This document shows positions 22,544-58,720 of a DNA stretch of 64,000 nt, in pieces. A model generated the notes under the pieces. It searched no databases and was not told where the DNA came from. It worked only from the letters and a program-made list of their open reading frames with translations. The position numbers and the translations under genes were made by a program. Position 1 is the first letter of the stretch; each line of letters begins with the position of its first letter. Source of the DNA: Spirochaetia bacterium (GTDB lineage Bacteria; Bacillota; Desulfotomaculia; Desulfotomaculales; JAJYZD01); assembly GCA_035530395.1 (NCBI GenBank), contig DATKUX010000146.1:273-64272 (forward strand). Reading direction: 5' to 3'.

Positions 22544-23338
22544 TCAGCCGGTTCCCAGGAGCAGGGCGGCAAAGTCGGCCGGGCCGATCCGGCCGTTGAC
22601 ACGCAGGCGGCGCAAGGCGTACAGGTCGGCCCCGGGCCTGTTGACCCCGGGCCGGGTGGAAACGGCGCCCCGGTAATACCGGCGGGCCAGCCGGCGGGTC
22701 TTTTGGTCAAAACTTCCGTACGGGTAGCAGAAAAAGGCTACCGGGCGGCCCAAAGCGCTTTCCAGGATGGTCCGGGAAGAGAGTAATTCCGCCACCGCCT
22801 GGTCCGGCGCCAGGCCGGCCATATGGAGGTGCCTGGCGCCGTGGGACTCGAAGTCGATACCGTCCGCCGCCATCTCCCTTATCTGGCCCCACTGCAACAT
22901 CGGCAGAACCGGCCCCCGGTCAAAATAGTTGGTTTTATCAACGGCCCCGGCCACCAGGAATATTGTGGCCGGGAAATGGTACTTCTTTAATACGGGGAAG
23001 GCGAAACGGTAATTGTCCTCGTAGCCGTCATCGAAGGTTATAACCACGGGCCGGGGCTCCAGGGCACCTCCCCGCCGCAGGTAGGCGACCGCCCGGTCCA
23101 GGGTGACCGGGTGGTAACCGGCCCGGGCCAGGTAGTCCATCTGCCGGGCGAACTGCCCGGGGGTAACCTTCAGGCCGGGACCGCCCGGACTGGTCGCCGT
23201 ATCCACCCGGTGATACATGAGCACCGGCACGAACCGCTCCCTGCCCCCGGCCCGTCCCTCGTCGGGCACCAAAATCCCGGGCTGCAGGGCTAAAAAGACA
23301 ATCAGACAGGCCGCGAAAACGAGACTTCTTATAGCCAC
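22544..23338 (-). CDS. Polysaccharide deacetylase (CE4) family protein, secreted
   Basis: Signal/TM N-terminus. NodB motifs VVITFDDGYEDNY and HGARH. Confidence 0.85.
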   Translation of the reverse strand: MAIRSLVFAACLIVFLALQPGILVPDEGRAGGRERFVPVLMYHRVDTATSPGGPGLKVTPGQFARQMDYLARAGYHPVTLDRAVAYLRRGGALEPRPVVITFDDGYEDNYRFAFPVLKKYHFPATIFLVAGAVDKTNYFDRGPVLPMLQWGQIREMAADGIDFESHGARHLHMAGLAPDQAVAELLSSRTILESALGRPVAFFCYPYGSFDQKTRRLARRYYRGAVSTRPGVNRPGADLYALRRLRVNGRIGPADFAALLLGTG

Positions 23339-24747
23339 CGCCCCCCCGGCCCCGGGGCGGGCATGATCATTATCACAAACGGCCCGTAACCATTGGGGGG
23401 CAGGGTTGTCCGCAACACGTAGGTATGGCCGGGCACCGCGTAAGGCAGATCGAACACCACATGTCCCTGCCCCAGCGGCTGGAGGGAACGGGGCGACCGG
23501 TAATAGCCGGCATAGCCGGGATCCCGGAAGGACACCGTCCTTACGACACCGTCCAAATCGAAGACCAGATGCTGGTCATACATATCCGGCGAGGCCAGCG
23601 GCCCGCTGTAAAGGGCCGGTTGAACGGCTACCGCCGCCGGTCCCGACAACTGGAGCCGGAAGACGTACACAATCCCGTAGTTGCCGCTGTCCTGGGCCCG
23701 GACATGATCGTCAAGGCCGTTTGCGGAGACGTCATTGACGAACATATCCGGTTCATAACCTGGGGCGGTGTCCGGACCACTATCACGGGCGAAATACTGC
23801 TGGGCCACCTGCACAGCTACGGGCTTCACCCCCGGTCCCGGGTCATACCTGATGGTCATGGTCCGGTCGGCCCCGGCAAAAATCCCCCGCTGGTGGAACG
23901 GAGTCGGCGAGGGCGCGCCCGGGGCGTCATCGGCCGGAGATATCACGTCCGATTTGTCGGCCAGCCGGTAGAAAGAGGTAAAGTCGGTCCCGTAACGGGT
24001 GATGAGGACCTCCACCCCGATCCCGCCGTCTGATACGGGCGTCACCAACTGACCGGTCTTTTGGTCGCGTAGGACGAAGTCGAACAGGCCCATGGCCCAG
24101 GCTCCCGGGCCCACGTTTTCCTGGTAGAGGTAGGAACCGCCCGGAGCCAGGTCGGCCAACCGGTGTTCCTCGTCGCCGTCCCCGCTGGCAAACCACTTTT
24201 CCACCAGGGTGGTGCCTTCCCGGCCGCCGAAGTCCGGTCCGGGGCCGGACCCCCCGGCAGCCGGCGCATAGTCCACCGGCCCCGCCAGGGTGCCGTTTCT
24301 GTCCGTGGTGCGCATTGTCGCCATACGCGTCCAAAAAAGGGAGACCGCCCGGCCGGTGTGGTTGACGACAGCCACACCTATGGTCGCCGGATCGTCCACC
24401 CGGGGGTTGCGCGGATCGAAAAGCAGGTTTTTATGGCTGTAAAGGAGCCGGAAACGGCCCGACATGACGTTATCCATTTTACACAGTATGCCGGGCCGGT
24501 TGGGAAACTCGGGGCTGTTGCTCAGCACCAGGGGCTGGGTGGAAAGATCCAGGGCCCGGCCCCGGCTGAGTGATACCGCCTGATCGAACACGCTCGCCGC
24601 TACCGTGAACTGACCGGGATCGGCCGGCGCGGGTACAGCGGTTCCCCACCAGCCGGCCAAAACGAGTAAAATTGCAAGAAGTCGCGTCCAACGGTGCAAG
24701 AAGAAGTCACCAAAAGTTGCCGCGCGGAAGCCCCTGGATTTATCCAT
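23329..24747 (-). CDS. Secreted hypothetical protein (no recognisable domain)
   Basis: 472 aa from ATG 24747. Signal-like WTRLLAILLVLAGWWGTAVPAPA. It overlaps the deacetylase start by 10 nt. The start codon lies inside the IscB element end hairpin. Confidence 0.6.
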   Translation of the reverse strand: MDKSRGFRAATFGDFFLHRWTRLLAILLVLAGWWGTAVPAPADPGQFTVAASVFDQAVSLSRGRALDLSTQPLVLSNSPEFPNRPGILCKMDNVMSGRFRLLYSHKNLLFDPRNPRVDDPATIGVAVVNHTGRAVSLFWTRMATMRTTDRNGTLAGPVDYAPAAGGSGPGPDFGGREGTTLVEKWFASGDGDEEHRLADLAPGGSYLYQENVGPGAWAMGLFDFVLRDQKTGQLVTPVSDGGIGVEVLITRYGTDFTSFYRLADKSDVISPADDAPGAPSPTPFHQRGIFAGADRTMTIRYDPGPGVKPVAVQVAQQYFARDSGPDTAPGYEPDMFVNDVSANGLDDHVRAQDSGNYGIVYVFRLQLSGPAAVAVQPALYSGPLASPDMYDQHLVFDLDGVVRTVSFRDPGYAGYYRSPRSLQPLGQGHVVFDLPYAVPGHTYVLRTTLPPNGYGPFVIMIMPAPGPGGRWL

Positions 24748-26584
24748 GGGGAGGAATCGCGGCACCGGCGTCAGCCGGCATCCTTTCGTGTTGCCAACCA
24801 TTGGCCCTTTGCCGCAACCGGCAATACTTTACCGGGATCCCCTGGCAGATCCGTTTCCCCGTGCCTTCCTTGATGTCGAAGTAGCCACTCTTTCTGACAG
24901 CCACCCGGCCGCGCCAACTGCCTGTGTACTTCCCTTTCGGGATATCGGCCGCCACCAGGTCGCCGGTCTTGAAACCGCAGTGGGTCTTCTTCCGTTCTCG
25001 CCACCGATAGGGAAATCCGTACTTGTCGATCCCGGCCATCTGCCGGTTGCCCCGACCGGTGGCCGTGTAGACCTCGACAAACGACACAGCCACCGTTTCC
25101 GGAAGGTTTTTCCCCACGCACGCGGCATCATAGTAGTGGGTCTTCGGTAGTTTTAACACCTGGGTACGATTGTACTTCGTCAGGCCACCGCTCCCGGTTT
25201 CCAGGGGCAACGCGAGAGCCGTGAGCCGTCGATAGAGCCCCCACCTGGTCGCGTTCATCATGGCCGCATCCTTCAGGGGCTGTTTCAACTCTTGGAGCGC
25301 CTTTGGCAGATTATCTGTCCGAATCTGGTCCAGGGCCTTGCCGGACGCCCGCAACTGTTCCAGCCACTCCTCCGGCTGCAGGTTGCCCTTATCATCATTG
25401 CACTTCTTGCAGGCGATGACCAAATTCGAGACCCGGTCCGTGCCCTTCGGCCCGTGGTCCGGGTTCCTTGGAACCACGTGCTCCACGTTCAGAACAGGGT
25501 CTCCGGAGGCACCCCGACAGTAAGCGCATAGGCGGGCAAATTTCTGCAGCAGGTACTCCCGCACCTCGTACCCGGCCAAGGTACCCTGCTGGTACTCGAC
25601 GCCGGAGATGTCCGGATTCTCCATCAGTTGGGTATCGAACCGGATCAACTCCATCGCGATCGCGGTGATGGGCAGGAGCTGGCGCATCTTACACACCCAG
25701 GACAAAGTCTCCTCCACCCGGGCCCGGAGCGAAGGCGGCAGCCACGCCTCCCGGAGACCGTTGTCAACGAACCGCCCGGCCTCATGGCACGGACGGCAGT
25801 ACCGGCTGCCGTGTTTCGCGTTCCGGCCACAGGCGGCACACTTCTCCGGGTGCCGATTGTTGAACCGGGGTTCCCGATACCGGGTCTTCCGGTTCCTGCG
25901 GCTCCGGCGTTGCTCCCGCCGGGCGTCCAGGTTTCCCTTGATGTCCGTCCGGTGTCGACATTCATAGCAGCCTATGGTTACTTTACCGTCCCGGACCACC
26001 GCACCCCCGGTTACTTTCGACCCGGGATCCAGCTTCATGTCGAGGGGTTGCAGAACACTGTCCTCAACCAAGCGGTCTTTCAGTCTGATCGTGAACGGAG
26101 CCATCTTGTGGACCACCGCCCGGCCGTGCTCCAAAAGTAGCCGGGCCCGTTTCTCGCTACATGGCATTAATGGTTTTTTGCGCTTGTCGAGTACATAAAC
26201 CACATGATTTCATCCTTTCTCTCCTTTCGGAGATCCCTTACGGGACCGGTTCCGCGCCGGGCTCGACACCCGGCATCTCTCCTCGCCGATGTTATCCCGG
26301 CTTTGCGCCGGCGGCACTGCTCGCATATAGTACGGTGATTACTGTGAATATGCTGTGTCCATTGTTACATCCACCCCTGCTCGCTGTTTAACCGCCGACG
26401 GCAGCTCCTGGAACTGGAGAAGCATCCCAGGGTGCCGGGACCGGAATAACGTAGTCTGCTCGCTCGGAGATCCCGGCAGACTTGGGCTGGTCATAGCGCC
26501 CTTGCGGGCTTTCTCGCCTAAATCCGGAGACTGTCGGAGGAGGACCTCCTCAAGCCCCCGGCTTTAGCCGTGGGGTCTATGACC
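24708..26584 (-). mobile_element. Non-autonomous IS200/IS605-type element carrying iscB + omega-RNA (copy 1)
   Basis: The ends were defined by comparison with copy 2. Similarity starts at CACCAAA (24708) and stops after ...GTGGGGTnnnTGAC (26583). Subterminal hairpins lie at 24731-24751 and 26556-26575. No tnpA. Confidence 0.7.
24740..26203 (-). CDS. iscB: IscB RNA-guided endonuclease (PLMP + split RuvC + bridge helix + HNH)
   Basis: 487 aa. Motifs: KKPLMPC (PLMP); LDPGSKVTG (RuvC-I); RREQRRSRRNRKTRYREPRFNNR (Arg-rich helix); IAMELIRFD (RuvC-II); CAYC...NVEHVVP...SNLVIACKKCNDDKGN (HNH); KTHYYDAA (RuvC-III). GTG start with an AGGAGAGAAAGGA RBS. Confidence 0.9.
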   Translation of the reverse strand: MVYVLDKRKKPLMPCSEKRARLLLEHGRAVVHKMAPFTIRLKDRLVEDSVLQPLDMKLDPGSKVTGGAVVRDGKVTIGCYECRHRTDIKGNLDARREQRRSRRNRKTRYREPRFNNRHPEKCAACGRNAKHGSRYCRPCHEAGRFVDNGLREAWLPPSLRARVEETLSWVCKMRQLLPITAIAMELIRFDTQLMENPDISGVEYQQGTLAGYEVREYLLQKFARLCAYCRGASGDPVLNVEHVVPRNPDHGPKGTDRVSNLVIACKKCNDDKGNLQPEEWLEQLRASGKALDQIRTDNLPKALQELKQPLKDAAMMNATRWGLYRRLTALALPLETGSGGLTKYNRTQVLKLPKTHYYDAACVGKNLPETVAVSFVEVYTATGRGNRQMAGIDKYGFPYRWRERKKTHCGFKTGDLVAADIPKGKYTGSWRGRVAVRKSGYFDIKEGTGKRICQGIPVKYCRLRQRANGWQHERMPADAGAAIPPHG

Positions 26585-26599
26585 AATCCTTTTTAGCCG
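26204..26599 (-). ncRNA. Candidate omega-RNA of IscB copy 1 (scaffold about 26204-26584, putative guide about 26584-26599)
   Basis: 380-nt non-coding gap directly 5' of iscB, dense in GC-rich hairpins. It is homologous to the region upstream of iscB-2, with compensatory changes. The extents are inferred, not measured. Confidence 0.65.
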
Positions 26600-27921
26600 G
26601 CAACGTTTTTAAGCAATTCCTTGATTTTCTTTTCCACCCGGAAGGGAATCAGGCCCATCCGTCCGGCGCGCCCCTGCCCGGCCAGCACCAGTTCCAGCAC
26701 GGCCCGACCCAGAAGCTCCGGGTCATGCCTCAGCAGGTCTCCTTCCCGCAGAAGGCGTCCGCCGACCACCCGCACGCCCAGCGCCTCCAGGGCGGCCAGG
26801 TCCACCTGCACCGGCGCGGATCCCTCTTCCCGGTAGCGCTCCAGCACCTTTCCCGGGGCCGGCTGCTGGTTCACCAGGACGCAGTTCACCTTCAACGGGG
26901 CGTGGGCCAATATGGCCCGGAAGTGGTCCGCCGCCGTGTAGCCGGCCGTTTCGCCCGGCTGGGTCATCACGTTCACCACATATATTTTGATGCCCGGGGC
27001 CTGGTTTATAGCCTCGGGAATCCCTTCCACCAGCAGGTTGGGGATGACGCTGGTGTACAGGCTGCCCGGGCCCAGCACTACCGCGTCAGCTTCCCGGATG
27101 GCCGCCAATACTTCTGCCGGCGGCCGGCAGGGAGCCGGTAACAGAAACACCCGCTCGACCGGCAGGGGACTCCGGGCAATGTGACACTGTCCCTTGAGGA
27201 CACTGCCATCGGCCAGGACGGCGCCCAGAACCACGTTGGCCAGGGTCACCGGCAGCACCCGGCCCCTAACCGCCAGTACCTTAGAGAGGCCCTGCACGGC
27301 CGCGAAAAAGTTACCGGTCACCTCGGTCAGGGCCGCCAGCATCAGGTTGCCCAGGCTGTGCCCAGCCAGTTCCCCTGTCCCGAAACGGTACTGCAAAACT
27401 TTTTCCATCAATGTTTCCTTGTCCGCCAGGGCGATCAGGCAATTCCGGATGTCCCCGGGGGGCAGGATACCCAGATCCTCGCGCAACCGGCCCGAACTAC
27501 CACCGTCATCGGCCACCGACACCACCGCCGTGATGTTGGCGGTGTACGCTTTAAGTCCCCTCAAAAGCACCGAGAGGCCGGTGCCGCCCCCGATCACCAC
27601 GATGCGCGGACCACGCTTCAGGTAGCGCCGGGCAAAGATGATGTCCACCAGGCGGCTTTGTTCCTCCGGCAGGAGAACCGTGACCACCGACCGGAAGGCC
27701 CGGTACAGGCCGGCCAGCAAAAGCGCGAAGCCGAGCAGGGCGAGCAGAGCCCCGGCTCCAAACCATTCCAGACTGTGGCGGCTCGGTCCCAGCACCGCCG
27801 CGGCGATCTGGGCGTTCTGGAAGAAGGAACCCGCCACCAGGAGTAACATCATCCCCGCCAGGGCCAGAATAAGCCACCTCTTCACCCGCAGGCCGGGATA
27901 GAGCCACTTCATTATTCTCAA
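26593..27921 (-). CDS. yvcK: Gluconeogenesis factor YvcK (CofD-like, UPF0052)
   Basis: GGGTGLSVLLRGLK motif. N-terminal TM segments. Neighbour of rapZ. Confidence 0.88.
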   Translation of the reverse strand: MRIMKWLYPGLRVKRWLILALAGMMLLLVAGSFFQNAQIAAAVLGPSRHSLEWFGAGALLALLGFALLLAGLYRAFRSVVTVLLPEEQSRLVDIIFARRYLKRGPRIVVIGGGTGLSVLLRGLKAYTANITAVVSVADDGGSSGRLREDLGILPPGDIRNCLIALADKETLMEKVLQYRFGTGELAGHSLGNLMLAALTEVTGNFFAAVQGLSKVLAVRGRVLPVTLANVVLGAVLADGSVLKGQCHIARSPLPVERVFLLPAPCRPPAEVLAAIREADAVVLGPGSLYTSVIPNLLVEGIPEAINQAPGIKIYVVNVMTQPGETAGYTAADHFRAILAHAPLKVNCVLVNQQPAPGKVLERYREEGSAPVQVDLAALEALGVRVVGGRLLREGDLLRHDPELLGRAVLELVLAGQGRAGRMGLIPFRVEKKIKELLKNVAG

Positions 27922-27937
27922 TCAACGAGCCCGCCCT

Positions 27938-28807
27938 TCAAACCCGGTTGACGTCACGGTGCCGGACCCTCACCCGGAAACCCCGCTCCTTGAAGATTTC
28001 GCCCAGCCGGTTGGCCAGGGCCACCGAGCGATGCATGCCGCCCGTGCAACCGATGGCGATCATCAGCGTCGTTTTTCCTTCCTTGGTGTAAAAGGGGATC
28101 ACGTATTCAATAAGATTTATGAACCTTTTCATGAACTCGACTGTTACCGGAGAAGCAAAGACGTAGTCAGCCACCGGCGCATCGTTACCGGTGAAAAGTT
28201 TCAACTCGGCCACATAGTGGGGGTTGGGGAGAAAGCGCACATCCATCACCAGATCCGAGTCGAGCGGTATCCCGTACTTGAACCCGAAGGAAACCACTGT
28301 AACCAGCAGGCCGCCGGTGTCGGGCCCCTCGCCGAAGACACTGGCCAGTTCGTCCTTCAGTTGGCGGCTGGTGAGGTCCGAGGTGTCGATGATCTTATGG
28401 GCCCGTCCCTTGAGCTCTTCCAGTCGGCGGCGTTCCTCCCTTATCCCGGTCAGGATTTCCGTGGAAAGGGGGTGGCGGCGGCGTGTTTCCTTGAAGCGGC
28501 GTACGAGGGCCTCGTCGGACGCGTCCAGGAACAGGATTTCGTAGCGTACGCCGCTGCGGTCCAGGTCGGCCAGCACCTCGAACAGGGTGTCGAAAAACTC
28601 GCCGCCCCGGATATCAACCACCAGGGCGACATTGCTTATCCGGCCGGCCGTCTGCGCCAGGAGTTCCCCAAACTTGGGAATGAGGGCCGGGGGCAGGTTG
28701 TCGACGCAGAAGAACCCCAGGTCCTCCAGGCTACGCAAGGCCTGCGTCTTCCCCGCCCCGGACAGCCCGGTTACAATTACCAGTCTGGGCTGGGTTATGA
28801 TAAACAC
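27938..28807 (-). CDS. rapZ: RNase adapter protein RapZ (YvcJ)
   Basis: [32 protein letters not shown] and C-terminal [10 protein letters not shown] motifs. Confidence 0.92.
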
Positions 28808-55153: not shown

Positions 55154-55272
55154 GTCCCCCTTGCGATTAACCTGGCTTTTTTGTGATCTCCCGTGGCGCA
55201 AAACGACTACGTGTTCAAGCATCGTCGGGTCGCTCCACCCAGACCTTTTGACCCACCTCCCTGGGATAATAC

Positions 55273-57209
55273 CACCAAAGATAGCCGGGCGCGGGAGCCC
55301 CTGCATTTATGCATGGGGAGGAGCGCCCGGTATGCCCCCTTTCCTTTTTGGAATCCATTTGGGAATGCCGTGCCCCTTAAGAGTCTTCACAATCGTACCG
55401 ATAATCGACCGGCTTTCGGACAAACGATTCCTGTACGCCCGTTCTTCCAGGGTCAACTTCTTCCAGTCCTTGTCCGCGATCATGTTTGCTTCCAGATGTG
55501 ATACCTCGAAGGTTCCCCGCTCGCGCAATCCGGTGATATAACCGTGAATTCTTATGCCGTCATTGACAAAAGAGACTTTATCGTACAACTGAAAACCATG
55601 CACCCTTCTTACGGCGGAAGTCCTCTCGCATGTTTTGCCTTTCTTGTTCTCGTTCGAGAAGCGGTGAAAAGGTCTGCGGGCTTTTAAACGCCTTTCGATC
55701 ACATGTTCCGCCGGTAGATCAAAATCTAACCCGCCTGCGGCTATCGTCATCGCGTCGATGATCTGCGCCTTTGGTAAACGAATCTTCAACCTGTAATATT
55801 TCGTCTGATAGCCGAAGGTCGCTTCAACCGGCACGCCAAGTTTCTTTAACTCCTGCCAGAGTGCCCATTTGTAACTTTGAGTCAGGGCACTGTACCGAAA
55901 AGCTCTGTGTTTGACTGCTTCTTTCTGGATATTCGGGAATCCGAATTCTTCTGCCGTTCGAGAACCCTTCTTTAAATTACACGTCTCACAGGCGATTACC
56001 AGGTTGGACACCTTGTCGGTACCGCCCCGGGACTTGGGAATAACGTGCTCGATCTCCAGAACCGGATCGCCGCTCTTTCCCTTGCAGTAAACGCATTGGT
56101 GGCCGTGTTTGTGTAGAAGGTACTCCTTGACCTCGTACCCGAAAAGGGCACCCTGCTGATATTCCGTGCCCTGGACCTCCGACCTGGCCATCTTCTGGGT
56201 ATCAAACGCGGTAAGCTCAACCCGGATCTTCGTTATGGGCATAATCCCGACCAGCTTCTTGACCTCCGCCAGGATCGCGTCAACCTTGTTCCGCAATGTG
56301 GGGTTGAGAATCTTATCGGTATCGTGCTTACCTTTCTCGCCGGCACGTTCATGCTGGCATTTCCGACAGACCGCGGCCCGACCGTTCTCAACCTTTTTGA
56401 GGCTCTTTCCGCCGTTCCTGCGTTTGGCCTTTTTCCAGACCTTCGGCGTGTGGTTCACGCCGCAGACCGAGCAGAACGACTTCGGCCGGTTTTGAAAACG
56501 GGACTTCCGGTACCCGGTATTACGGCCCCGGCGCTCTCTCCGGGCGGCGGCCCGCCGCTTAAGCTGCGCCGAGATGTCAGTCCGGAGCAGGATCTCCTTG
56601 GCATAGACGATCTCACATGTTTGCTCTCCCGGCTTGTGCTGCTCTACTGCTACCGGTGTATCGCTGGAACCCGGATCGATTCCGAGTGTCATTTCCACCG
56701 GTACAAATGCCGTACTTTCGTACGTCAACTGGATGGTGAACGGGTTGTAGCACATAATGACAGCCTTGCCGTCTTTGAGGAGATGCCGGACCCGGCCTGG
56801 CCGCCGCGTCGGCGCCAACCGCTTACCCGACTTCGATATTACGAAGATCTGTTGCTGTTCCGACTTTTTCTCGCTCTGCTTCATCAGAAGAACACCTTCC
56901 GTGGTTCCCCCCTGAGGGGGGGATAATGCGGGCCAGGGGCACCCGTTCAATTCCCCGCCTGTGTTCCGCCGGCTTGCCCGGATACGCCGGGCCGTCCCGA
57001 GGTTGACCGCCCCGTCCCCCGAGGGGCTTTTACAGAGCCTCCAGAATGTTCTGCCAGACTGGCTTTTCATCCGGCTGTCTGCTAACCGGTGGAACGCCCG
57101 GTCGCCCGGGCTGGCTGTCGCTCACGGAGCTTCCGCTCCCGCATCAATCCGAGAACATGTCAGGGTGGTTACTGACAAGCCCCCGCATTTATGCGTGGGG
57201 TGATTGACA
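55273..57209 (-). mobile_element. Non-autonomous IS200/IS605-type element carrying iscB + omega-RNA (copy 2)
   Basis: The same terminal architecture as copy 1. It starts at CACCAAA (55273), has hairpins at 55298-55318 and 57181-57200, and ends ...GTGGGGTnnnTGAC (57208). No tnpA. Confidence 0.7.
55307..56884 (-). CDS. iscB: IscB RNA-guided endonuclease, divergent paralog
   Basis: From ATG 56884: MKQSEKKSEQQQIFVISKSGKRLAPT (PLMP-like). Further motifs: GIDPGSS (RuvC-I); RRAAARRERRGRNTGYRKSRFQNR; IRVELTAFD (RuvC-II); CVYC...EIEHVIP...SNLVIACETCNLKKGS (HNH); KAQIIDAM (RuvC-III, with Q where copy 1 has H). The ORF-track start at 57070 reads through the omega-RNA region. Confidence 0.88.
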   Translation of the reverse strand: MKQSEKKSEQQQIFVISKSGKRLAPTRRPGRVRHLLKDGKAVIMCYNPFTIQLTYESTAFVPVEMTLGIDPGSSDTPVAVEQHKPGEQTCEIVYAKEILLRTDISAQLKRRAAARRERRGRNTGYRKSRFQNRPKSFCSVCGVNHTPKVWKKAKRRNGGKSLKKVENGRAAVCRKCQHERAGEKGKHDTDKILNPTLRNKVDAILAEVKKLVGIMPITKIRVELTAFDTQKMARSEVQGTEYQQGALFGYEVKEYLLHKHGHQCVYCKGKSGDPVLEIEHVIPKSRGGTDKVSNLVIACETCNLKKGSRTAEEFGFPNIQKEAVKHRAFRYSALTQSYKWALWQELKKLGVPVEATFGYQTKYYRLKIRLPKAQIIDAMTIAAGGLDFDLPAEHVIERRLKARRPFHRFSNENKKGKTCERTSAVRRVHGFQLYDKVSFVNDGIRIHGYITGLRERGTFEVSHLEANMIADKDWKKLTLEERAYRNRLSESRSIIGTIVKTLKGHGIPKWIPKRKGGIPGAPPHA

Positions 57210-57224
57210 GGTCGAAGAAGCACC
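56885..57224 (-). ncRNA. Candidate omega-RNA of IscB copy 2 (scaffold about 56885-57208, putative guide about 57209-57224)
   Basis: Structured 325-nt region 5' of iscB-2. Its 5' module aligns with copy 1 (ACCCCACG-hairpin-GGGGGCTTG-hairpin-TCTCGGATT...CCAGCCC). The extents are inferred. Confidence 0.65.
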
Positions 57225-58720
57225 TACTCTGCGGAAGTCTGTGGTTGGGCCCACCAGTCGCCTTTTTTAGGTGCAAGCTCATCCTCGGCGCAGGTCCAGG
57301 CGGAACCGCTCCGCCAGGCCTCCCTTATTTCGATGAGATGGCTGAAAAGAAATGCCAAAAAGGCGTTTTCCCTGTCGAACCCAGTATAGCCGGCAATTTT
57401 CGCGAGAACGTAGGTAAGGACGGCCGGATCCTGTTCCCGGTCTATTACCTGCCAGGTTTCCTCCGTCAGTACAACATGCTTTTCGGAGTCCGCAGCAGCT
57501 ATCAAGGCGTGCAAGGTCGTCCCGTCCCAGTTCTTTCCGTCGCAGGCTATTGCTTTCCGGAAGAGCTCGACCTCCTGTTCGGGGTAGGGAAGCTCAAAGG
57601 TGCCAGGTGTGACGTTGGTATCTCCAGTCCTTTGGGGCGCAACGCGCTCCGCCTGCAGTTTGTGTAATATGTTCCGGACTCTTTCTACTGGAACGCCGGC
57701 CATGCCGGCTATTTTCCGGGAAGCCTCTTCCTCCTCAAAGTAAGCACGGGTCCGGTAATACCGGGGTACGAACTCGGCCGGCAGAAAACCGACGGCCCGG
57801 GCCGGTCCGGTAGGTCCCGAATCAAAGGCACCCAGAGCATGAGCGATGGACAATACTTGTTCCAACTCCCACCGGGGGCCGTCGGAGTCCAGGCACGCCA
57901 TCCGCACCAGATCGTACAAGTTGCCCGTACCGTCAAGAATATGGAGGCATTCCCCCAATGCCCCAATGGTCCCGGGGGCATTTTGCTTGAGGCGGTCTTT
58001 CGCCCATGAGTTGCACAGGGTTATGTTTTTTGACACCAGCAGGCGATAAATGGCTGCCTGATCGCCCCTCTGTTCCTCGCTCGTTTTTTGGACCAGTCCG
58101 CTGTCCCTTTGAGCGAGCACGTCCCAGAGCCTTTCCGGATCCAGGAGCAATGGTATATCGAAGGGTTTTCCCTTGATCCCGGTGAGCCACCGGAGGGAAT
58201 GCGCCCAGTCCCGCGCAGCCAGGTTGCCGGTGGCGCAGGCCCGACCGGGAAATAGGTTTTCCGCCAGGGTGATAATGCACCAGATGAAGTCGTGATAAGG
58301 GCAGGACTGGGTCTTTTCGTGAAATACCCTGACCGGCCTCCGGCCCCGGAAGAGGGTATCGGACAAATCTTCGTCGTCCTGCCCTTTATGCTTCGGTCCA
58401 TATATTCTCCGCCGGTAGAAGCCGATATCGCGGTATAACGTGAAGTCTTCGCCCCTCTGCCTTGTCCATCCGTCCCCTACAATGGACAAAAAACGTCCGA
58501 ATTCGTTCCGGCCTTCGATACGGCGGGTGAGAAAAAACCGGTAATAGCCCGACTTGTTCTCCGCGTCCAACCTCTGGAGGGGTAGGGGAAATGCCCGGGC
58601 CAGTGCCAGAGCCTCATCGTAGAAGCCATTCCATTCCCCGGGGTCGATTTCCAAGGGCAGGATGTCCAGACCCAGATAGACTCCCATTTCAAATTCCCTC
58701 CCCACTAACGAAATTTCCAT
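57224..58720 (-). CDS. Hypothetical protein, 498 aa, no recognisable domain
   Basis: Long uninterrupted ORF with normal composition. It is divergent from an XRE regulator, and its stop is 15 nt from the IscB-2 element end. Confidence 0.6.
   Translation of the reverse strand: MEISLVGREFEMGVYLGLDILPLEIDPGEWNGFYDEALALARAFPLPLQRLDAENKSGYYRFFLTRRIEGRNEFGRFLSIVGDGWTRQRGEDFTLYRDIGFYRRRIYGPKHKGQDDEDLSDTLFRGRRPVRVFHEKTQSCPYHDFIWCIITLAENLFPGRACATGNLAARDWAHSLRWLTGIKGKPFDIPLLLDPERLWDVLAQRDSGLVQKTSEEQRGDQAAIYRLLVSKNITLCNSWAKDRLKQNAPGTIGALGECLHILDGTGNLYDLVRMACLDSDGPRWELEQVLSIAHALGAFDSGPTGPARAVGFLPAEFVPRYYRTRAYFEEEEASRKIAGMAGVPVERVRNILHKLQAERVAPQRTGDTNVTPGTFELPYPEQEVELFRKAIACDGKNWDGTTLHALIAAADSEKHVVLTEETWQVIDREQDPAVLTYVLAKIAGYTGFDRENAFLAFLFSHLIEIREAWRSGSAWTCAEDELAPKKGDWWAQPQTSAE

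Follow-up and report, generated by a model that had tools for sequence, protein, structure and literature searches.

The HEARO RNA (Rfam RF02033) lies 5' of iscB and was subsequently shown to be the guide that is termed omega-RNA (Meers et al., bioRxiv 10.1101/2023.03.14.532601; Goltsman et al., PMC9755519). The scaffold of the omega-RNA derives from the right end of the transposon and the guide lies outside the transposon boundary; furthermore, IscB elements require read-in transcription, and their co-orientation with the upstream gene is favoured (Meers et al., bioRxiv 10.1101/2023.03.14.532601). We analysed a 64,000-nucleotide stretch of contig DATKUX010000146.1 (assembly GCA_035530395.1; hereafter the window, in whose numbering all positions are given), for which an initial annotation had proposed that the regions upstream of two iscB genes are homologous RNAs with covarying stems, and candidate omega-RNAs. 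We are highly confident that both regions are HEARO omega-RNAs serving two diverged IscB proteins, and that each RNA together with its iscB gene constitutes a ~1.9-kb non-autonomous element of the IS200/IS605 type. The RNAs, the iscB genes and the features described within and beside them lie on the minus strand. The scaffold of omega-RNA 1 occupies 26210-26584, comprising a HEARO core (26583-26272) followed by three terminal hairpins, and that of omega-RNA 2 occupies 56890-57208, comprising a sub-threshold HEARO match (57208-56945) followed by terminal hairpins. The sequences quoted in the initial annotation for both copies were found on the minus strand, copy 1 starting at 26584 as given there and copy 2 at 57210 rather than 57215.

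We scanned the whole window against Rfam. RF02033 was the sole family matched above threshold, at 26583-26272 (111.9 bits, E 3e-22, relative to a gathering score of 83 bits), with the match to copy 1 covering model positions 1-211. The alignment of copy 2 likewise spanned model positions 1-211, at 57208-56945, but reached only 40.3 bits (E ~1e-6 in a permissive scan of 801 nt). Thus, the covariance-model search suggested by the initial annotation detected HEARO in both regions, with copy 1 above the gathering score and copy 2 below it; judged by the Rfam threshold alone, copy 2 would not belong to the family. Since only 65% of IscB 5' untranslated regions match RF02033 (Goltsman et al., PMC9755519), a sub-threshold copy 2 is not unusual, and surveys of omega-RNAs have relied on cut-offs much lower than those of Rfam, together with gene context (Meers et al., bioRxiv 10.1101/2023.03.14.532601). 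Weak matches to twister-sister (18 bits), whalefall-1 (17.5 bits) and guanidine-II (15.6 bits) in the copy-2 region were far below their respective gathering scores and were dismissed as chance. The two regions also align with each other along their entire length, which, together with the shared match to model positions 1-211, bears out the proposed homology; their assignment as candidate IscB omega-RNAs is likewise upheld by the RF02033 match of both regions and by the identity of both downstream open reading frames (ORFs) as IscB.

We then assembled a set of 158 loci that encode IscB-2 relatives, among which blastn identified close relatives of both RNAs. A full-length HEARO match was present 5' of the IscB match in 17 of the 18 related loci scanned with Rfam. 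All 8 copy-1-type loci scored 100-129 bits, and the 9 scored loci from the copy-2 type or the wider clade around it all fell at 42-82 bits, each below the gathering score. The features shared with the Rfam family extend beyond a full-length match: the position and strand directly upstream of iscB, a P1 helix around the end hairpin, a nexus stem, a central stem, inner hairpins, a variable 5' flank as the predicted guide, and a scaffold bounded by the transposon end. Copy 1 differs from the model in bearing 43-nt and 50-nt insertions and three extra 3' hairpins, while copy 2 and its clade-mates differ in their scores, which for the clade-mates from other contigs were 42-56 bits compared to the gathering score of 83.

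Both scaffolds stop ~10 nt or less before the start codon of a same-strand ORF with RRXRR and HNH domains. The iscB-1 coding sequence (24740-26203) begins with GTG and specifies 487 amino acids (aa; Pfam RRXRR, 2.7e-63, plus HNH), and that of iscB-2 (55307-56884) begins with the ATG at 56884 and specifies 525 aa (RRXRR, 4e-42, plus HNH). The two proteins are 36% identical. Each matched the solved structures of TbaIscB and OgeuIscB (7XHT/7UTN), with E values of 4e-43 to 1e-19 for IscB-1 and 1e-40 to 6e-28 for IscB-2. IscB-1 carries the PLMP motif, the RuvC residues D (DPGS), E (MELIRFD), H and D (the latter two in KTHYYDA) and an HNH domain. The HNH domain of IscB-2 is intact, and RLAP stands in place of PLMP. 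At the start of iscB-1, relatives read ATGGTTTATGT where the window reads ATGTGGTTTATGT (26201-26206); this 2-nt insertion places the old ATG out of frame, and the in-frame start is the GTG at 26203. Both intact iscB genes are under purifying selection. For IscB-1 compared to its relative at locus L026, the ratio of nonsynonymous to synonymous substitution (dN/dS) was 0.15 with a dS of 0.50, and 36% of synonymous sites differed compared to 7.6% of positions in the RNA region. For IscB-2 compared to locus L001, dN/dS was 0.135 with a dS of 0.48, and the respective differences were 35% and 4.6%. Since the RNA regions diverged less than the synonymous sites, the RNAs are more constrained than silent positions.

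We next compared copies of each element. Homology among element 1 copies (L024, L026, L028, L095 and L043) runs from 26584/26583 to ~24707, and that among element 2 copies (L001, L002, L004 and L007) from 57208 to 55272, each spanning ~1.9 kb. Homology begins at 57208 in L001, L002 and L007, and the aligned block of L004 is ragged at this end. Flanking sequence was unrelated in every copy of both elements, indicating that the RNA-plus-iscB unit is mobile, since the same element occurs elsewhere with unrelated flanks. Because homology begins at the first base of the scaffold, the predicted guide is located in the flank. The motif CCCCAYGNNTAAANNNRGGGGCT (CCCC-A-NNNN-TAAA-NNNN-GGGG) was found exactly 4 times in the window compared to an expectation of 0.08, once near each end of each element and always on the minus strand. 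In element 1, the end hairpin CCCCACGGCTAAAGCCGGGGGCT (26553-26575), which is hairpin 1 of the initial annotation, has a predicted DNA fold of -8.1 kcal/mol, and the second end hairpin, CCCCATGGATAAATCCAGGGGCT, lies at 24729-24751. The corresponding hairpins of element 2, CCCCACGCATAAATGCGGGGGCT (57178-57200) and CCCCATGCATAAATGCAGGGGCT (55296-55318), were likewise identified by motif scan and DNA folding, and all four adopt one fold as DNA. In both elements the TAA stop codon of iscB lies within the TAAA loop of the distal hairpin, so the hairpin stem encodes the C-terminal residues, PPHG and PPHA. Each unit has subterminal hairpins at both ends, in the same orientation and without inverted terminal repeats, as is characteristic of the IS200/IS605 type, and hairpin 1 probably doubles as the subterminal hairpin recognised by TnpA at the end of the transposon.

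Opposite the omega-RNA end, element 1 copies terminate in GGTGA (24707-24711; GGATGA in L095) and then diverge, while L001, L002, L004 and L007 terminate in GGTGG (55272-55276 in the window) before diverging. These last conserved bases are candidates for the transposon-adjacent motif (TAM). At an uninterrupted orthologous site (L162/L163; YvcK 82% identical), a 17-nt spacer separates yvcK from the next gene and GGATGA stands at the junction. We considered this empty site as a means of fixing the exact length of the TAM, but the intergenic spacer has diverged too far for this purpose. Known non-autonomous iscB and tnpB elements of the IS200/IS605 type (Meers et al., bioRxiv 10.1101/2023.03.14.532601) share with the two window elements the subterminal hairpins at both ends, the tnpA-less unit, the co-oriented insertion just 3' of a host gene and a conserved short motif opposite the omega-RNA end that fits a TAM. 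In contrast to the AT-rich TAMs of the Geobacillus elements studied by Meers et al., the candidates described here (GGTGA and GGTGG) are G-rich. Separately, pieces resembling element 1 occur in either orientation at locus L058, suggestive of a copy that has been rearranged. When its expected start is used, the iscB frame extends for only 294 aa in L007 and 18 aa in L004; these genes may be pseudogenes, or their start positions may have been misassigned.

Conservation of the regions could in principle reflect DNA-level signals of the transposon end (a hairpin for TnpA and a guide for the cleavage site) combined with an ordinary 5' untranslated region, with no functional RNA involved. Such a view draws on the repetition of hairpin 1 at the opposite end of each element and on its exclusively Watson-Crick pairing, which permits it to form in single-stranded DNA of either strand; the covariation of hairpin 1 alone fails to discriminate between DNA and RNA structure. 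With the window copy as reference, we projected the HEARO structure onto plain MAFFT alignments that had not been fitted to the model, and compared it to 500 shuffles and to controls in which pairing partners were slid. In the copy-1 clade (alignment A4, 8 sequences), 90.1% of cells were paired with 13 compensatory pairs, compared to 33-39% and 0-4, respectively, for the slid controls. In the copy-2 clade (alignment A3, 8 sequences), 82.0% of cells were paired with 16 compensatory pairs, compared to 29-48% and 1-4. None of the 500 shuffles matched the observed paired cells, compensatory pairs or covariation score of either alignment. An independent RNAalifold prediction on A3 returned 86 pairs, and compensatory changes were present in 25 of these. 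When the two window copies were aligned to each other through the model and compared over its 67 pairs, 27 were identical, 24 had changed on both sides yet remained paired, 2 had changed on one side, and 14 were broken or gapped. Thus, the covarying stems noted in the initial annotation are borne out by the 24 pairs compensated between the window copies, and the covariation persists after homologues from other contigs are added. Both regions were also more stably folded than dinucleotide-preserving shuffles (100 shuffles; z = -4.05 and -3.07 for copies 1 and 2, respectively).

In both clades, the interval from the 3' limit of the Rfam model to the start codon holds further hairpins, which often have GNRA-type loops and show compensatory changes. 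Those of copy 1, at 26274-26256, 26247-26232 and 26233-26220, show compensatory changes; those of copy 2 are at 56945-56929 and 56923-56906. Downstream hairpins of this kind are known to be absent from RF02033 (Meers et al., bioRxiv 10.1101/2023.03.14.532601). Within the model, the CUUG/CAAG helix of Rfam is probably a misfit in copy 1, for which a GCCC-GCAA-GGGC hairpin fits better; this hairpin is lengthened in L095 and L043 by complementary insertions. Taken together, covariation extends over ~300 nt and more than 10 helices, well beyond any IS200/IS605 end. Moreover, the many conserved G-U pairs, which would be C-A mismatches on the opposite strand, place the structure on the iscB-sense strand, and the region matches a curated RNA family. 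Conservation at the DNA level alone is accordingly very improbable, and we retain the interpretation that both regions are omega-RNAs.

A second concern was that the region upstream of iscB-2 might be coding. The iscB-2 gene lies in a longer open frame that reaches 57070 (55307-57070, 587 aa), and the gene call of the public assembly yields a product of 547 aa (P0001). Relatives, however, carry indels of 1, 2 and 17 nt in the stretch upstream of iscB-2, the changes found there are compensatory in RNA helices, and homology to IscB begins at the methionine at 56884. We therefore assign almost no weight to a coding role for this region. Because the indels are not multiples of three, the stretch 56885-57070 is non-coding, and the public gene call, which runs over omega-RNA 2, is over-extended.

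We next examined the 5' module. The 8-bp long-range complement reported for copy 1 is exact, GGTCATAG (26584-26577) pairing with CTATGACC (26496-26489), and corresponds to helix P1 of the Rfam HEARO model. As had been described, hairpin 1 retains its shape while its inner stem changes: the sequence is CCCC-A-CGGC-TAAA-GCCG-GGGG in copy 1 and CCCC-A-CGCA-TAAA-TGCG-GGGG in copy 2, with two compensatory pairs between them. Hairpin 2, as proposed, is found at corresponding positions in the two copies although its sequence is unrelated, but copy 1 can form only ~5 of the 7 pairs claimed, since pairing of all 7 bp would shrink the loop to 1 nt. Three blocks had been described as conserved and single-stranded. 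The first, GGGGGCTTG, is mostly the 3' arm of hairpin 1, and the second, TCTC(C)GGATT, contributes the 3' strand to an alternative long helix. The third, CCAGCCC, is only partly homologous between the copies, the block that is actually conserved being GAC(C)AGCC.

The first ~70 nt of both RNAs (within 26489-26584 and 57117-57208) can adopt two mutually exclusive folds, namely the local end hairpin as in the Rfam model or the long helix. In the latter, the loop of hairpin 1 and its 3' arm pair with AGUCUCCGGAUUUAG (26532-26518) in copy 1 or GUUCUCGGAUUGAUGCG (57156-57140) in copy 2, and hairpin 2 sits at the tip of the helix in the minimum-energy fold of the P1 module. The predicted energies of the long-helix and local-hairpin folds were -51.2 and -46.6 kcal/mol, respectively, for copy 1, and -42.4 and -34.5 kcal/mol for copy 2, and RNAalifold selected the same long helix. 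It was 87% and 80% paired in the copy-1 and copy-2 clades, respectively, with several compensatory and many G-U pairs. Both folds are thus conserved. The coexistence of a transposase-type hairpin and a long adaptor helix in one segment makes a dual role possible, in which the same 5' DNA may provide a single-stranded DNA signal for TnpA and, as RNA in another fold, serve IscB.

In OgeuIscB (7XHT, 7UTN; Kato et al., PMC9640706), the order of omega-RNA parts is guide, adaptor helix, nexus stem, central stem, pseudoknot hairpin, linker and terminal hairpins, and this order is shared by the window RNAs. The adaptor module of the latter is ~92-96 nt and branched, in contrast to the simple 43-nt hairpin of OgeuIscB. 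The window IscBs are moreover distant from OgeuIscB in sequence (E 1e-19 to 5e-28), and copy 2 is without the pseudoknot loop. In copy 1, the loop of the pseudoknot hairpin, CUUCUCC (26416-26422), is complementary to GGAGAG at 26282-26277, a loop-to-linker complementarity that corresponds to the nexus pseudoknot of OgeuIscB (PMC9640706). An unbiased scan of alignment columns identified CUUCUCC as the best complementary partner of the linker, and pairing is possible in 8 of 8 clade sequences. In copy 2, the column scan yielded no convincing replacement partner. One candidate for a replacement, the AUUCU:GGAAU pairing, was set aside because it is absent from L001 and L079. Separately, the 5' UCAAU:AUUGA pairing of the copy-2 minimum-energy fold was discarded, as clade-mates do not conserve it.

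Several observations count against our interpretation. In addition to the failure of copy 2 to reach the gathering score, the pseudoknot columns of copy 1 are almost invariant (one C-to-U change, with G-U pairing kept) and thus provide zero compensatory covariation. A 17-nt segment, CTGATCTTCTCCGGGTC, is missing at ~57062-57064 from copy 2 and likewise from L001, a relative with 95% identity. The RuvC residues of IscB-2 read D/E/Q/D, its KAQIIDA motif aligning with KDHYLDA of OgeuIscB such that glutamine replaces H340. There is no tnpA within either unit, and a crude HUH motif scan of the window ORFs returned none that was convincing; as only this crude scan was applied, the present mobility of the elements is putative. 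Finally, expression, processing and guided cleavage are predicted by analogy with published work on IscB.

Four points prompt the alternative that the omega-RNA/IscB pair of copy 2 is in decay or altered in function and does not operate as a guide system that cuts DNA: the score of only 40.3 bits, the 17-nt deletion, which removes a UUCUC loop that is complementary to a downstream GGGAA in six clade-mates (L002-L005, L007 and L079; A3 columns 186-203), the glutamine at the position of OgeuIscB H340, and RLAP in place of PLMP. With both the RuvC histidine and the pseudoknot loop affected, copy 2 may act differently or less well. Other observations speak against this alternative. Although copy 2 and L001 share the deletion, their RNAs remain 95% identical in the face of a 35% synonymous difference, and the ORFs are intact with a dN/dS of 0.135. 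Furthermore, glutamine occupies the RuvC histidine position in 56 of the 120 closest IscB-2 homologues, among them Methanosarcinales IscBs, with the RuvC residues D, E and D and the HNH residues kept, indicating that it is a trait of the clade and not a lesion. Among the 16 of 18 loci with a readable residue, all glutamine-type loci scored below the RF02033 gathering score and all histidine-type loci above it. Decay or altered function of copy 2 therefore appears unlikely, and we continue to view copy 2 as an omega-RNA paired with its IscB.

The size of the glutamine clade, its sub-threshold RNAs and the loss of the pseudoknot loop in the copy-2/L001 branch, from an RNA that is nevertheless under strong purifying selection, raise the possibility that copy 2 represents a functionally distinct IscB/omega-RNA lineage. 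We advance this proposal, jointly with the separate one of a dual DNA and RNA role for the 5' module, as a speculative pair whose combined truth we consider doubtful. The glutamine-type clade could be a natural target-strand nickase or could be otherwise altered in catalysis.

The genomic context of both RNAs fits the read-in transcription and orientation bias of IscB elements. Each scaffold starts 9-15 nt past the stop codon of an upstream gene in the same orientation, a yvcK-like gene for copy 1 (stop at 26595-26593) and a 498-aa ORF for copy 2 (57224-58720, stop at 57226-57224), and no minus-strand promoter-like or terminator-like site was detected between the upstream gene and either RNA. 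The 498-aa ORF had zero Pfam matches. With the guide length of ~16 nt taken from published IscB work, the predicted guide of omega-RNA 1 is CCGGCTAAAAAGGATT (26585-26600), which lies beyond the element boundary, overlapping the TAA stop codon of the yvcK-like gene, and that of omega-RNA 2 is GGTGCTTCTTCGACCT (57209-57224), directly 3' of the stop of the 498-aa ORF. By analogy with published IscB systems, transcription of the upstream gene would read into the element, the ~16 nt of flank 5' of the scaffold would thereby become the guide, and IscB would bind the scaffold. TnpA supplied in trans would excise the element, after which the resealed donor joint, consisting of the flank and the TAM (probably GGTGA or GGTGG), would match the guide and be cut, and recombination with a sister copy would then restore the element. 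A structured scaffold that is fused to a short guide and directs a RuvC-family nuclease is likewise a feature of the TnpB omega-RNA (reRNA) and of the Cas9 tracrRNA:crRNA. In contrast to the RNAs described here, that of TnpB is located at the 3' end of the gene and bears a 3' guide, and Cas9 guides come from CRISPR arrays, whereas no array is involved here.

Element 1 resides within a conserved row of genes consisting of rapZ, yvcK, a gene for an unknown ~450-aa secreted protein, and whiA (window 23329-28807; loci L159-L164). The listed ORF of the gene downstream of element 1 (23329-24801) overlaps the end of the element, and the gene is likely to start in reality no earlier than ~24700. The G+C content of the 55-62 kb region is 50-58%, below that of most of the window, and this region may be an island.

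As a practical consequence, both regions should be annotated as noncoding RNA (IscB omega-RNA/HEARO) and the iscB-2 call should start at 56884. The RNA family is already curated in Rfam and has been characterised experimentally; what is new are its members, and of these copy 2 comes from a diverged clade. The scientific addition in this respect is small, given how well IscB omega-RNAs have been studied. In these data, RF02033 misses an entire clade of IscB, that with the glutamine-type RuvC domain, in which 10 of 10 loci fell short of the gathering score, and this clade is of modest value as a candidate compact natural nickase. Finally, a single Peptococcaceae-like genome harbours two diverged IscB elements that appear to be maintained; the boundaries of both are defined, and each has its own candidate TAM.

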